Virus record (IMG/VR): IMGVR_UViG_3300042937_000802
Span: 27,462-91,461 of that record
Direction: 5' to 3' (one strand)
Length of the DNA: 64,000 nt
Origin: a virus
Position 1 is the stretch's first letter. Every line of letters begins with the position of its first letter. A program made the position numbers and the translations under genes. The notes below the pieces were generated by a model. The model saw only the letters and a program-made list of their open reading frames with translations. It made no database searches and was not told the DNA's origin. Shown here piece by piece: positions 32,327 through 64,000 of this stretch.

Positions 32327-32986
32327 ATGATTATTGATTTACAGGAAATTAAAACACTTTGGATTAATTTAGATCGGGCTACAAAAAACGCAGAAGATAT
32401 AACAAAGCAATGTGAAATTTATGGAATAAAAAACCATGAAAGATTTCCAGCAATAGTTATTGATCCTTCAAATCATTTATGTGTAAGTCATCATCCACAC
32501 ATGAAGCCATATTTGGCTGGTTGTGGGCTTTCTCACATAGAATGCATTAAAAAAAGTATTGGCAGTGGTCCAACACTGGTTTTGGAAGATGATGCTCAGA
32601 TTACACCGGCATATGAGAATATTATAGAAGTTCCAGATAATATTGATGCACTTTATCTGGGTGTTTCTACCGGTTCTCAACAATATTTGAGTTGTGCATA
32701 CAATGAAAAATATTTAAGAATAGGCAGAATGTTAGCAGCACATGCGGTTGTTTATATATCTGAACGGTATAAACAAGCAGCATTAGCAGAAGCAGAAAGA
32801 TTTGTACACGAATTGCATTATCCGTGGGACATATCACCTTCAGTAATCCAAGAACACTTTTTAGTATTGACTCCAAAATTGCCATTTTACATTCAATCAG
32901 ACAATAGACAATCTGAACACAAATGGCAATTTTTTACAGATAAAGCAATAGAAGACAAAGGTTATAACTTTAATGATAACTTTTAA
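32327..32986 (+). CDS. Glycosyltransferase, GT25-like
   Basis: WINLDRA, GCGLSH, LVLEDDA, LYLG, AHAVVY. Confidence 0.75.
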   Translation: MIIDLQEIKTLWINLDRATKNAEDITKQCEIYGIKNHERFPAIVIDPSNHLCVSHHPHMKPYLAGCGLSHIECIKKSIGSGPTLVLEDDAQITPAYENIIEVPDNIDALYLGVSTGSQQYLSCAYNEKYLRIGRMLAAHAVVYISERYKQAALAEAERFVHELHYPWDISPSVIQEHFLVLTPKLPFYIQSDNRQSEHKWQFFTDKAIEDKGYNFNDNF

Positions 32987-33761
32987 AAATTTAGGAGCAT
33001 ATGGTAGAATGGGAAACCAGATGTTCCAGTATGCACTTTTATATTCAATTGCCAAGACAAGAGAATACGAATTTGGTATACCTTATAATTTAAAATCAAA
33101 TAATCCATATTTTAATATGTGTCTCTCAGATTCTTTTGATAATTTATCAGCAAAAAACAGCGATGATGCTCATATCATATATCAAGCAAAAGAAAAAGTT
33201 TGGGGATATAATCCAGGAATTTTTGGTATATCCGACAATACAGATATACTTGGTTATTTTCAAAGTGAAAAATATTTTATAGATTATAAAACACAATTAT
33301 TAAAAGAATTTGAATTTAAAAAAGACATTCAAAGAAAAGCACTTGATATTCGAAGCATTACAAAAGAACCAATAATATCTGTTCACCTGAGACTAGGTGA
33401 TTACAAAAATTTAGTTGGTAAACATCCTATTTGTACTATAGAGTATTATAAAGAAGCTCTCAGTAAATTACCAGAAGATTTATTGATTGTAGCTTTTAGT
33501 GATGAACCAGATTTAGCAAAAGATTTATTTGATTCTTTAAGGAGAAAATATTTTATTACAGAGTCTAATGATCAAAATGTTGATATGTGTGCCATGACTT
33601 TATGTGATTATCACGTTATAGCAAACAGTAGTTTTAGTTGGTGGGGCGCATGGCTTGGAGAAAGTAAAAAAGTTATAGCTCCGAGTCAGTGGTTTGGTGA
33701 ATCTCATGATATGCCAAAAAATTGGTCAGATATTTATTGCAAAGATTGGATTATTATATAA
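32973..33761 (+). CDS. Alpha-1,2-fucosyltransferase-like, GT11
   Basis: GRMGNQMFQYA, GYFQSEKYF, VHLRLGDY, IANSSFSWWGAWL. Confidence 0.92.
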   Translation: MITFKNLGAYGRMGNQMFQYALLYSIAKTREYEFGIPYNLKSNNPYFNMCLSDSFDNLSAKNSDDAHIIYQAKEKVWGYNPGIFGISDNTDILGYFQSEKYFIDYKTQLLKEFEFKKDIQRKALDIRSITKEPIISVHLRLGDYKNLVGKHPICTIEYYKEALSKLPEDLLIVAFSDEPDLAKDLFDSLRRKYFITESNDQNVDMCAMTLCDYHVIANSSFSWWGAWLGESKKVIAPSQWFGESHDMPKNWSDIYCKDWIII

Positions 33762-59900: not shown

Positions 59901-62900
59901 TACTGGTAATACTGGTCCAACTGGTAACACCGGTCCTACTGGTAACACAGGTCGAACAGGTGCCACTGGTAACACTGGTCTTACTGGTAACACAGGTAAC
60001 ACAGGACCCACTGGTAACACTGGTTCTACTGGTCCAACTGGTAACACAGGACCTACTGGCAACACCGGTCCTACTGGTAACACAGGTCGAACAGGTGCCA
60101 CTGGTAACACAGGTCCTACTGGTAACACAGGTAATACAGGTCCTACCGGAAACACAGGTCCTACTGGTAACACTGGTCCTACTGGTAACACTGGTCCCAC
60201 TGGTAACACTGGTCCAACAGGTAATACAGGTCGCACTGGTGCTACTGGTAATAGTGGATCAACTGGCCCTTATGGTTTAATTGGTTATGATGGACGCAGA
60301 GGTCCATTAGGAAATACAGGTTCTACTGGTTCTACTGGTCAAACTGGTCCTACTGGTAACACTGGTTCAACAGGAAACACTGGTAACACTGGTCGAACTG
60401 GTGATACTGGAAATACAGGTTCCACTGGTCCCACTGGTAACACAGGACCTACTGGTAATACAGGTCGAACAGGACCCACTGGTAACACAGGACCCACTGG
60501 TAATACAGGACCAACAGGTAACACCGGACCTACTGGTAATACAGGTCGAACAGGTGCCACTGGTAACACTGGTTCAACAGGAAACACTGGTCCTACAGGT
60601 CCCACGGGTAACACCGGTAACACTGGTTCAACAGGAAACACTGGTCCTACAGGTCCCACTGGTAACACAGGTCGAACAGGTGCCACTGGTAATACCGGTC
60701 CTACTGGCAATACAGGTCAAACTGGTACCACTGGTGCCACCGGTAATACAGGTTCTACTGGTAACACAGGTCCTACTGGTTCAACAGGAAACACTGGTCC
60801 TACAGGTCCTACTGGTAACACAGGACCTACTGGTAACACAGGTAACACTGGTCCTACTGGTAACACAGGTCGTACTGGTGCCACTGGTAACACAGGATTT
60901 ACTGGTCCCTATGGTTTAATTGGTTATGATGGCCGTAGAGGTCCATTAGGAAATACAGGTGCATCAGGAGCAACTGGCTCTACTGGTAACACTGGTCCTA
61001 CTGGTAACACTGGTCCTACTGGTAACACCGGATCTACTGGTAACACAGGTCGAACAGGTCCCACGGGTAACACTGGTCTTACTGGTAACACAGGTAACAC
61101 CGGTCCTACTGGTAACACGGGTCCTACAGGTCCTACTGGTAACACAGGTCGAACTGGTGATACTGGAAATACAGGTTCCACTGGTCCCACTGGTAACACA
61201 GGACCTACTGGTAATACAGGTCGAACAGGACCCACTGGTAACACAGGACCCACTGGTAACACAGGACCCACTGGTAACACAGGACCCACTGGTAACACAG
61301 GACCAACAGGTAACACCGGACCTACTGGTAATACAGGTCGAACAGGTGCCACTGGTAACACTGGATCTACTGGTATCACTGGTAACACTGGTCCTACAGG
61401 CCCCACTGGTAATACTGGTCCTACTGGTAACACAGGACCTACTGGTAACACAGGACCTACTGGTTTAACAGGTAACACAGGGCCTACTGGTCCTACAGGC
61501 TCCACTGGTAACACCGGACCTACTGGCAACACCGGACCTACTGGCAACACAGGTCGCACCGGTGCAACTGGTAATACAGGATTTACGGGTCCTTATGGTT
61601 TAATTGGTTATGATGGTCGTAGAGGTCCATTAGGAAATACAGGTTCTACTGGTTCTACTGGTCAAACTGGTCCTACTGGTAACACTGGTAACACTGGTTC
61701 AACAGGAAACACTGGTAACACTGGTCCTACTGGTTCTACTGGTCCTACTGGTAACACAGGTCGAACAGGTGCCACTGGTAACACGGGTAACACCGGTCCT
61801 ACCGGTAACACTGGTCCTACTGGTAACACTGGTCCCACTGGTAACACAGGACCCACTGGTAACACAGGACCCACTGGTAACACAGGACCCACTGGTAACA
61901 CAGGACCCACTGGTAACAGAGGTCCTACTGGTAACACAGGACCTACTGGTAACACAGGACCTACTGGTAACACAGGACCAACAGGTAACACCGGACCTAC
62001 TGGTAATACCGGCCCTACCGGCAATACAGGTCGAACGGGTTCTACTGGTAGCACTGGACCTACTGGTTTAACAGGTAACACAGGGCCTACTGGTCCTACA
62101 GGCTCCACTGGTAACACCGGACCTACTGGCAACACCGGACCTACTGGCAACACCGGACCTACTGGCAACACAGGTCGCACCGGTGCAACTGGTAATACAG
62201 GATTTACTGGTCCTTATGGTTTAATTGGTTATGATGGTCGTAGAGGTCCATTAGGAAATACAGGTTCTACTGGTTCTACTGGTCAAACTGGTCCTACTGG
62301 TAACACTGGTAACACTGGTTCAACAGGTAACACAGGGTCTACGGGCAACACAGGTCGAACTGGTGCCACTGGTACGACAGGTACTACAGGTGCTACAGGA
62401 GCAACGGGAGCTACTGGTCCAGTTGCAGGTGTAGCAGGTCAATTTATTATAAATGCTGATGGCACTAATCCTGGAGGTGCAACTGGATTTATTTACTATA
62501 ACGGAACTGTAAAAGGTACAACAGCTTGGATTGATAATCTTAAAGTATTTCAACGTAGAACCAACAATACAGATCTTACAACTTATTCTTATTATAATAG
62601 ATATAATCCAAAATTATATGATAAAAGTTCATTTGTAGATGCAGAAATCGAATATTCTGCAGTAACAACAAAATGGTATTCCGATACTGCTGCTGGGCAT
62701 GTTGCATATCAAACTCTTGCAGAAAGTAATACTACCTATTTTAATTTAAATCTTTTAATAACCCCAGGTGTATACGTTTTAGATCCAGGTCCTATTTCAT
62801 CATCTTATATTGCTGCACTATCTGCAGCTTATTGTGGAGATTCTAGTAATCCTCCTTGTAATGCTGCAAATATAATTTATGATTTAAATGGCGATGGCAT

Positions 62901-64000
62901 AGTCAATGGTTCGGATCTGGCTATTGCACTAGGTTTATATAGGTCTGGTACTAATTTATACACAGACGTATTATATTATCCAGGTTCAACTGGAACATCA
63001 GTTGATTCAAATCTAAGTACCGAAACATGGTGCATTGAAAATACTTGGTTTAATTATTCTGGACTAACAGGTGACGGAAAACCATATAGAGTAATACAAC
63101 AAGTAGGATATAAATTACAAAACTTAGAATCTGGAGCAGGGTTTACAGGTTTTAATGCAGATTATGAAAAATATGTAAGACAAGGTGTAGTCTACAAAAA
63201 TCAAATAACAGGTGCAGAAGGTTTAACTTTATATTGGTCTTCTTGGACACAGGATCAAGGAAGTGGTTCTGGTGGAACGGGCAATACAGGTTCAACTGGA
63301 ACAACAGGAGCAACTGGCCAAACAGGTAGAACTGGTGCCACTGGTTCTACTGGACCAACAGGTAACACTGGTGCTACCGGAAACACAGGTCCTACTGGTA
63401 ACACTGGTCCTACCGGTAATACTGGACCAACAGGTAACACTGGTGCTACTGGACGTACTGGTCCCACTGGTAACACAGGTCCTACTGGTAACACAGGTAA
63501 TACAGGTCCTACCGGAAACACAGGTCCTACTGGTAACACTGGTCCTACTGGTAACACTGGTTCCACTGGTAACACTGGTCCAACAGGTAATACAGGTCGC
63601 ACTGGTGCTACTGGTAATAGTGGATCAACTGGCCCTTATGGTTTAATTGGTTATGATGGACGCAGAGGTCCACTAGGAAATACTGGCGCAACAGGAAATA
63701 CTGGTGCTACTGGACGTACTGGTCCCACTGGTAACACAGGTCCTACTGGTAACACAGGTAATACAGGTCCTACCGGAAACACAGGTCCTACTGGTAACAC
63801 TGGTCCTACTGGTAACACTGGTGCTACTGGACGTACTGGTCCCACTGGTAACACAGGTCCTACTGGTAACACAGGTAACACTGGTCCTACTGGTAACACT
63901 GGTCCCACTGGTAACACTGGTCCAACAGGTAATACAGGTCGCACTGGTGCTACTGGTAATAGTGGATCAACTGGCCCTTATGGTTTAATTGGTTATGATG
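56995..64000 (+). CDS. Giant Gly-X-Thr collagen-like fibre protein (>2,335 aa, 3'-truncated; absent from ORF track)
   Basis: ATG at 56995 and no stop seen in this frame to the window end. N-domain [29 protein letters not shown]; collagen 57241-62424; globular knob-like domain 62425-63270; collagen resumes at 63271. Confidence 0.92.
57241..62424 (+). repeat. Coding 9-bp tandem repeat (GGN NNN ACN), 576 Gly-X-Y triplets
   Basis: [15 protein letters not shown] and GLT units; all landmark spacings are multiples of 9 nt. Confidence 0.92.
63271..64000 (+). repeat. Second Gly-X-Thr collagen repeat tract (runs off window)
   Basis: Same units and the same [12 protein letters not shown] cassette. Confidence 0.9.

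Follow-up and report, generated by a model that had tools for sequence, protein, structure and literature searches.

The GT2-TPR genes and the collagen-like fiber locus

The stretch of DNA analyzed here (the window) comprises the last 64 kb of the 91,461-bp linear IMG/VR contig IMGVR_UViG_3300042937_000802, the completeness of which is estimated by CheckV at approximately 51%. It encodes two tandem enzymes in which a family 2 glycosyltransferase domain is joined to tetratricopeptide repeats (GT2-TPR; designated GTa and GTb), followed on the same strand by an Ig-like protein, a short fiber and a giant collagen-like fiber. This gene order, given in a preliminary description of the window, is confirmed here, with both enzymes passing the Pfam threshold for GT2.

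Judged by its gene content, the phage is a T4-like myovirus: the structural genes of T4 type recognized in the window are those for the portal, prohead protease, scaffold, gp23, baseplate and neck proteins and terminase, and the replication and regulation genes are those for gp32, UvsW, UvsY, gp55, gp47, gp46, gp45, gp44, gp62 and RegA. Its clamp loader is 52–54% identical to those of Pelagibacter phage Mosig, the Methylophilales Melnitz phages and marine cyanomyoviruses, and a megablast search of positions 50569–57400 against cultured phages gave no matches. The stretch 50569–57200 is present in more than 20 lake-water metagenome runs, which indicates a recurrent freshwater phage. GTa, GTb, the Ig-like protein and the short fiber are joined, with 0 differences, on contigs assembled from other lake-water runs; two further IMG/VR contigs share this layout, contain at least 301 and at least 323 Gly-X-Y triplets and likewise break inside the collagen. 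One metatranscriptome run yielded just gp45–gp62 pieces, from a relative 95–99% identical. The features of the locus are as follows, with lengths in amino acids (aa):

53026–54258, plus strand: GT2-TPR glycosyltransferase a (GTa), 410 aa, identified by Pfam, profile and model
54260–55378, plus strand: GT2-TPR glycosyltransferase b (GTb), 372 aa, identified by Pfam and profile
approximately 55360–55366, plus strand: CTAAATA late-promoter-like box, within the last codons of GTb
55379–55410, plus strand: spacer of 32 nt between GTb and the adaptor, containing a short hairpin and, ahead of the adaptor ATG, a GGAG ribosome site
55411–55812, plus strand: Ig-like protein (PHROG 1084), candidate fiber-docking adaptor, 133 aa
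55812–56993, plus strand: short fiber, 393 aa, with a conserved N-terminal segment, 8 Gly-X-Y triplets and a Ser/Thr-rich C-terminal domain
56925–56932, plus strand: exact T4-type late promoter box TATAAATA, 63 nt before the ATG of the giant gene
from 56995, open at 64000, plus strand: giant collagen open reading frame (ORF), more than 2,335 aa, cut by the end of window and contig
56995–57240, plus strand: N-terminal domain of the giant ORF, 82 aa, common to fibers of many phages including jumbo phage Tunturi_5
57241–62424, plus strand: collagen tract 1, 576 unbroken triplets with eight GPYGL[VI] cassettes
62425–63270, plus strand: globular insert, 282 aa, with a dockerin-like DLNGDG...D motif
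63271–64000, plus strand: collagen tract 2, truncated where the contig ends, with at least 81 triplets

GTa starts 2 nt past the stop codon of regA and is 60% identical to GTb over 372 aa. The two match Glycos_transf_2 (PF00535) with 48.5 and 48.6 bits, respectively, against a cut-off of 23.3, and in GTa a GT-A domain (approximately residues 1–170, with DADD at residues 91–94) is followed by a TPR-like helical domain. Across an alignment of 33 diverse family members, both window copies included, DADD and 26 other columns are invariant, and there is little or no variation in the nucleotide-binding DTGSTD motif and the HE motif. The nearest solved proteins by sequence are GmaR of Listeria (E-value 2.6e-22 with the profile of this 33-member family) and then the glycocin S-glycosyltransferases SunS and ThuS (2e-17 and 2.9e-13); the C-terminal half of the profile (approximately positions 170–300) matches consensus TPR proteins and the TPR domain of OGT. 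The AlphaFold model of GTa, with a mean confidence (pLDDT) of 94.1, has an all-helical C-terminal half with helical repeats. Compared with the PDB, it is best matched by SunS/ThuS over approximately 395 columns, nearly its full length (E-value 1e-15); teichoic-acid glycosyltransferases give far weaker fold matches, through the catalytic domain alone. No hydrophobic membrane segment is predicted in either GTa or GTb. By sequence and predicted fold, then, the two are soluble GT-A enzymes of an architectural class whose solved members, SunS and ThuS, act on peptides.

Two other assignments were rejected. The SunS equivalog model (TIGR04195) gives 34.9 and 40.5 bits against a cut-off of 350, with approximately the first 100 residues aligning, and glycosylation of DNA is argued against by the peptide-directed GT2-TPR fold and by bacterial homologs adjoining genes for surface proteins. 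With 2,342 clusters at E <1e-30, the family is a large one, and a second enzyme gene is confined, among the contigs examined, to the window and its two closest relatives. In a FastTree phylogeny GTb branches at the base of the phage clade, nearest to the single enzymes of other relatives, indicating an old paralog or an acquired allele rather than a recent duplicate.

The giant ORF begins 1 nt past the short fiber gene and matches the Pfam Collagen family (PF01391) with 899.5 bits. The preliminary description had its Y position almost always occupied by threonine, which holds for 597 of the 657 Gly-X-Y triplets (91%); at the X position Asn (246) and Pro (205, or 31% of triplets) are the residues recorded. 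Since all four ACN codons are used at Y (ACT 344, ACA 189, ACC 52, ACG 12) and the repeat units are only approximately 66% identical as DNA, threonine is kept at the level of the protein rather than through mere copying of a DNA repeat. A complete homolog of 2,467 aa is encoded by the related contig L126 (10001–17404), in the order N-domain, long collagen, globular insert, second collagen and C-terminal globular domain of approximately 500 aa. By analogy, the gene in the window would lack further collagen and a C-terminal globular domain of approximately 500 aa, and the full fiber would probably reach approximately 2,600–2,900 aa. At approximately 0.29 nm per residue, tract 1 would span approximately 0.5 micrometer, and the repeat itself suggests a trimeric triple helix. 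The ORFs scanned included no hydroxylase gene.

The GPYGL[VI] cassettes recur between 57592 and 63999, nine complete and a tenth cut, at distances of 67–78 triplets and with the Gly register intact; L126 has GPVGFDGRRG cassettes at similar spacing. The globular insert found no match in Pfam, PHROG or NCBIfam, and its dockerin/EF-hand-like motif is kept in L126 as DLNNDGTVNATDL. Most relatives (L007, L009, L011, L012, L017, L018, L020 and L126) also encode a fiber starting MFFGKNK with a charged, Thr-free collagen tract of approximately 50 triplets, some of them with an additional C-terminal tract of GNTGAT type; this fiber was not seen in the window and perhaps lies beyond the contig end.

The 133-aa Ig-like protein lies directly 3' of the enzyme gene, a position kept in relatives, and is likely the adaptor through which the fibers dock. 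Its model is an Ig-like sandwich (pLDDT 84) with approximately 140-aa chains of the T5 and DT57C tail tips as best phage fold matches (TM score approximately 0.6); antibody domains match it equally well, leaving a weak hint of docking. The T5 chain in question is presumably the collar protein where the side fibers attach. The short fiber, announced as a short collagen fiber, is present as a 393-aa gene product with collagen character limited to its 8 triplets; like several of its neighbors, it has no family in Pfam, PHROG or NCBIfam.

A (C/A)TAAATA box and a Shine-Dalgarno site precede the adaptor ATG in 14 of 15 relatives, in most of them with a hairpin in between, and the box before the giant gene has a counterpart at the corresponding place in L003, L004 and L006. 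Exact TATAAATA boxes show no enrichment over the window as a whole (9 found, 10 expected), and sigma-70-like sites are not above shuffled sequence. The late operon of the preliminary description is a deduction from one exact box at 56925 and the conserved CTAAATA-type box before the adaptor. The layout fits a late unit beginning 3' of the enzyme genes, with the enzymes themselves read together with the replication genes.

Association of the enzyme family with threonine-rich collagens

If GT2-TPR enzymes act on collagens of Gly-X-Thr type, the two should co-occur, as the preliminary description had proposed to check. Among phages, the order gp45-gp44-gp62-regA-GT2-TPR was found on 21 IMG/VR contigs with enzymes 64–96% identical; the adaptor comes next in 17 of them and variable collagen-like fibers follow in 18, the rest mostly ending just past the enzyme gene, and in some the fiber set ends at gp43.

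For bacteria, one genome per species was retained, giving 80 loci with homologs 33–40% identical over their full length, from at least seven phyla or classes (Actinomycetota, Myxococcota, Chlamydiota, Alpha-, Beta- and Gammaproteobacteria, Planctomycetota, Acidobacteriota, Armatimonadota and others). Collagen runs were scored where they were Thr-rich, not Gly-rich otherwise and at least 8 triplets long. In 29 of the 80 loci such a run begins at most 1 kb from the enzyme gene, and in 36 at most 10 kb away. Expressed per 100 kb of available flank, the density of runs is 18.9 in the first kilobase versus 0.8 at 4–10 kb, a 23-fold excess (Poisson p approximately 2e-29). The runs lie mostly in ORFs of 300–1,000 aa with globular C-termini; on a Cupriavidus plasmid, the enzyme is paired with a collagen annotated as a "tail fiber protein".

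Viral loci were also collected from the side of the fiber, using a profile of its N-terminal domain and counting an enzyme if present in the flank or elsewhere on the record. Among the resulting 37 loci, a Thr-rich collagen is found in 11 of 13 with the enzyme versus 1 of 24 without it (Fisher p 1e-6, a statistic that ignores relatedness). Nine long records without the enzyme, one of them rated complete, have the N-domain and mostly homologs of the short fiber, and no Thr-rich collagen. The jumbo phage Tunturi_5, which has an acidobacterium as host, encodes a 31% identical homolog; 3.7 kb away lies the gene for a 1,470-aa "tail fiber protein" that contains several GPT/GAT tracts and has an N-terminus homologous to that of the giant fiber in the window. 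Further pairings occur at L154 and L157, whose enzymes form one clade, and in G006, with the enzyme approximately 50 kb from the fiber locus; LR756502 has a looser pairing, 6.5 kb apart. In the tree, the enzymes of Tunturi_5, L154/L157 and G006 lie outside the T4-like clade. The phage enzymes form at least five distinct groups, some of them embedded within bacterial enzymes that are associated with collagens, and every main branch includes members with such an association.

Several loci have other neighbors. On Citrobacter, Enterobacter and Escherichia coli plasmids (L160), a 34% identical GT2-TPR homolog lies directly 3' of the gene for a 990-aa autotransporter without collagen repeats; the family may also glycosylate other surface proteins. 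In Mycobacterium and Mycolicibacterium (L062, L080, L086 and L047), the homolog lies beside Gly-rich, PGRS-like repeat ORFs, which end in short GAQ or GAT tracts and are not clean collagens. On a Bacillus cereus plasmid (L162), a 25% identical homolog is followed by a second glycosyltransferase gene and, beyond it, a 2-kb stretch with neither a listed gene nor a collagen run.

The gene order, the family and fold of the enzymes, their intact catalytic motif and the genomic association are established, and we consider it likely that the GT2-TPR pair are protein O-glycosyltransferases of the type of SgtA of Clostridioides difficile, acting on the collagen-like fibers of the phage itself. The link between GT2-TPR and Thr-rich collagen at the core of the preliminary description is supported by fold and profile comparisons, by the architecture shared with SgtA and by the association in bacteria and phages. 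Under this reading GTa and GTb would be soluble, cytoplasmic enzymes: the TPR half would grip the unfolded or folding Gly-X-Thr chain, and the GT-A half would move a sugar from a nucleotide sugar onto the threonine at position Y. The main substrate would be the giant fiber, with approximately 600 Thr sites per chain and approximately 1,800 per trimer. The enzyme genes would be read with the gp45-gp44-gp62-regA unit and the adaptor and fiber genes from behind the late-promoter-like box, so that the enzymes would be present when the fibers are made; the lack of a membrane segment fits action in the cytoplasm, where this takes place. The transfer, the identity of the sugar, the sites modified and any effect on helix stability or host interaction are what we infer from this scheme.

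A number of observations weigh against it. The synteny in the T4-like clade is inherited, its contigs are not independent and the whole clade counts once. Approximately half of the bacterial loci are without a collagen run, some of them being short contigs, and several distant viral homologs have no collagen within 10–20 kb. The family is not exclusive to collagens, as the enzyme following the autotransporter gene on enterobacterial plasmids illustrates. The timing of enzyme expression is deduced from gene spacing alone. Finally, the giant fiber of L126 has Gln at the Y position (GIQ/GVQ), and one GT2-TPR gene is retained there: the L126 enzyme must accordingly have another protein or the smaller Thr-rich tract as its substrate, and threonine at Y is specific to certain lineages rather than obligatory for the giant fiber.

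A variable sugar island

A second set of sugar genes lies between uvsY and gp55, with one further gene between gp55 and gp47:

32327–32986, plus strand: GT25-like glycosyltransferase, below the Pfam threshold
32973–33761, plus strand: GT11 glycosyltransferase (Pfam)
33722–34366, plus strand: FkbM methyltransferase (Pfam)
34329–35171, plus strand: GT10 glycosyltransferase, first copy (Pfam)
35168–36118, plus strand: GT10 glycosyltransferase, second copy (Pfam)
36160–37464, plus strand: DegT-type aminotransferase (Pfam)
37430–38188, plus strand: GT34-like glycosyltransferase, below the Pfam threshold
38210–39157, plus strand: dTDP-glucose 4,6-dehydratase-like protein (TIGR01181, 314.8 bits, below the cut-off of 365)
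39151–39450, plus strand: small HAD / phosphoheptose-isomerase-like ORF
39435–40943, plus strand: NeuB-cupin fusion (Pfam, NCBIfam)
40934–42712, plus strand: thiamine-diphosphate enzyme of acetolactate-synthase type (TIGR00118, 365 bits, below the cut-off)
42705–43370, plus strand: sulfotransferase (Pfam, NCBIfam)
43360–44463, plus strand: S-adenosylmethionine (SAM) methyltransferase (Pfam, NCBIfam)
44460–45251, plus strand: short NAD epimerase/reductase (Pfam, NCBIfam)
45830–46891, plus strand: GDP-mannose 4,6-dehydratase (GDP_Man_Dehyd, 465.8 bits), between gp55 and gp47

The nucleotide-sugar and tailoring enzymes of the preliminary description are found in this list as dehydratases, the NeuB-cupin protein, an aminotransferase, a sulfotransferase, methyltransferases and an epimerase. 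Its "about six more" glycosyltransferases come to five glycosyltransferase-like ORFs, of which GT11 and the two GT10 copies exceed the Pfam threshold and the GT25-like and GT34-like ORFs do not. The enzyme of acetolactate-synthase type could make a branched or acylated sugar, and a 41% identical relative is kept in G003.

The place of the island is kept in four relatives, as determined by tblastn (L119–L122). Its alleles are approximately 40–70% identical compared with 98–99% for the flanking core genes: the GT25-like and GT10 proteins, for instance, are approximately 40% identical in phages in which UvsW and UvsY are 98–99% identical, suggesting allele replacement by recombination. Pfam scans revealed no family of initiating polyprenyl-phosphate transferases, flippases, ABC exporters, polymerases or ligases in the island, and none of its ORFs has a 19-residue stretch above 1.5 on the Kyte-Doolittle scale, so that all its proteins are predicted to be soluble. 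More than 100 records of cultured cyanomyoviruses, P-SSM2, S-SM2 and S-SSM7 among them, have relatives of GT11 and GT10 at 36–41% identity, in places adjoining an annotated family-25 glycosyltransferase, whereas no cyanophage or pelagiphage record matched in the search with GT2-TPR. The island enzymes tested in this way are therefore independent of priming by GT2-TPR, and we regard the island as a separate, variable module, the solubility and allele variation of which fit a glycan on the phage surface and host lipid-linked units alike; its target may be a fiber glycan, other virion proteins or the host envelope.

We give an even chance to the island being an auxiliary module that alters the lipopolysaccharide (LPS) or capsule of the host envelope, for example against superinfection, with only the GT2-TPR enzymes concerned with the fibers. 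The spread of the same glycosyltransferase families through cyanomyoviruses in which GT2-TPR was unmatched speaks for this, as does the character of GT11, GT10 and GT25, which are classical LPS and O-antigen families according to their Pfam descriptions. It is also the interpretation given in the literature, where sugar genes in pelagimyophages are read as serving modification of the host O-chain, without experiments (PMC7029224). With no membrane or export component encoded, however, the island would depend wholly on host machinery.

The same solubility and lack of export genes can be turned to the opposite conclusion, since the island alone cannot export a polysaccharide. The preliminary description had the GT2-TPR enzymes prime the threonines and the island glycosyltransferases extend and cap them; the island would then build long fiber glycans, a glycocalyx encoded by the phage, with five glycosyltransferases, the synthesis of fucose, amino-deoxyhexose and nonulosonate, and sulfo- and methyltransferases as the tailoring set. 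All relatives examined that have enzyme and fibers retain the island at its site, the strong allele divergence beside a 98–99% identical core is what an exposed, selected surface would be expected to show, and the glycans of BclA3, the collagen-like substrate of SgtA, are extended past the first N-acetylglucosamine (GlcNAc) by other enzymes (PMC7157674). Extension and capping by the island, as put forward in the preliminary description, is nevertheless not supported, because the GT11 and GT10 relatives are so common in cyanomyoviruses and GT2-TPR is unmatched there. In addition, the island lies 6–20 kb from the enzymes and fibers with replication genes in between, soluble enzymes that use lipid-linked units of the host as acceptors would give the same picture, and the pelagimyophage literature assigns such genes to the host O-chain. 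We consider this full pathway unlikely. Slightly more doubtful again is its most elaborate form, a complete phage pathway of protein O-glycosylation in which approximately 1,800 primed threonines per half-micrometer trimer would be elaborated by the hypervariable island and alleles swapped between otherwise nearly identical phages would amount to a "serotype" of the glycocalyx. The glycans would in that case be fucosylated, bear amino-deoxyhexose and nonulosonate, be sulfated or methylated and evolve under diversifying selection, an expectation we hold with the same doubt.

Outside the island and the fiber locus, a TnsA-like endonuclease ORF lies amid the baseplate genes of the window (8609–9040, minus strand) and may be a mobile nuclease.

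Possible substrates of the enzymes and known glycosylation systems

An alternative to the reading that GTa and GTb glycosylate the collagen-like fibers is the view that they mainly modify other targets, carrying G-x-T-[G/A] on outer virion proteins or on a host surface protein, with their position beside the collagens a matter of inherited gene order. The motif G-x-T-[GA] occurs 26 times in 22 virion proteins versus 7.2 expected from shuffling, and once in 29 nonvirion proteins versus 2.4 expected; the pairing with an autotransporter on plasmids and the enzyme retained in L126 despite Gln in its giant fiber point the same way. However, the broader G-x-T motif is only weakly enriched relative to composition, 1.5–1.7-fold in virion proteins compared with 1.35-fold in others; G-x-T-G is the collagen repeat itself, so the two readings overlap rather than compete; and the adjacency to Thr-rich collagens across phyla is far stronger than to any other neighbor seen. 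We therefore hold this view to be improbable. It should be noted that the occurrences of G-x-T-[G/A] are concentrated in two unannotated proteins (3199–5458, minus strand), a 433-aa protein (20349–21650, plus strand), the adaptor and the short fiber, and that such virion proteins may be further targets of glycosylation. That the enzymes are catalytically idle and serve as TPR chaperones or regulators of fiber assembly is hardly credible: TPR domains do bind extended peptides, and GmaR is bifunctional, being also an anti-repressor, but the DTGSTD, DADD and HE motifs are preserved in all or nearly all of the 33 family members.

For action on the phage's own fibers, the closest model is the pair of SgtA and BclA3 in C. 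difficile. SgtA has 358 aa, with a GT-A domain at residues 1–260 and four TPRs at 262–358, and is encoded immediately upstream of bclA3; the recombinant enzyme adds beta-O-GlcNAc from UDP-GlcNAc onto threonines of BclA3 collagen-repeat peptides in vitro (PMC7157674). The enzyme–fiber pair in the window has the architecture and the genomic arrangement of SgtA–BclA3, SgtA being likened through its published domain layout only: both systems have a soluble single polypeptide of approximately 360–410 aa, with an N-terminal GT-A/GT2 domain and C-terminal TPRs, encoded directly upstream of a collagen-like gene with threonine in its repeats. They differ in that here the setting is a T4-like phage, with two diverged paralogs placed behind regA, and the presumed substrate is a virion fiber of more than 2,335 aa with Asn or Pro at the X position. 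Announced as a candidate new system, the locus is thus better described as a phage version of the SgtA–BclA3 pair, not new in kind; what is notable is the size of the fiber, the pairing of the enzymes and the T4-like setting.

SunS and ThuS (PDB 7msn and 7msk), the best full-length structural matches, likewise consist of a GT2 domain followed by a TPR-like domain and act on a ribosomally made peptide encoded nearby. Unlike the enzymes proposed here, they S-glycosylate Cys in small bacteriocins, and the locus has no glycocin, transporter or thiol-disulfide genes, its neighbors being regA, the adaptor and the fibers. GmaR (PDB 22ao) is the best solved relative by the sequence of the catalytic domain. 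It is a GT2-TPR O-GlcNAc transferase of flagellin and O-glycosylates this filament protein in the cytoplasm; it differs in its substrate and in its additional regulatory role, and no flagellar genes are present here.

Phage-encoded glycosylation of virions is known in mycobacteriophages (Freeman et al. 2023, cited in PMC12582341; see also PMC11256854). The parallel lies in phage glycosyltransferases modifying the virion proteins of the same phage. The targets there are reportedly the C-termini of capsid and tail-tube proteins, not collagen fibers. The "LPS" islands of cyanomyoviruses and pelagimyophages resemble the locus in their relatives of GT11 and GT10 and in forming a variable island in a T4-like genome (PMC7029224), and differ in that no record there matched GT2-TPR. 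Among the papers searched we found none on the glycosylation of phage collagen fibers or on a cross-phylum pairing of enzyme and collagen, which other papers may report.

The coat or nap of glycosylated fibers envisaged in the preliminary description, along with the roles proposed for it, is a speculation at present. If true, sugar-coated fibers would change views of host recognition, particle stability and recognition by the immune system or by grazers for aquatic phages, and glycosylation of fibers would explain part of the "LPS-like" genes of T4-like phages, which are usually assigned to modification of the host. Glycosylated threonine at the Y position is a known stabilizer of collagen free of hydroxyproline, as in the cuticle collagen of Riftia, and GT2-TPR enzymes could thus be tools for stable recombinant collagens. 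The occurrence of GT2-TPR beside Thr-rich collagens in at least seven bacterial phyla or classes and in several phage lineages may matter more: it suggests that a cassette for glycosylated collagen, known as the SgtA–BclA3 pair of a single spore former, is widespread.

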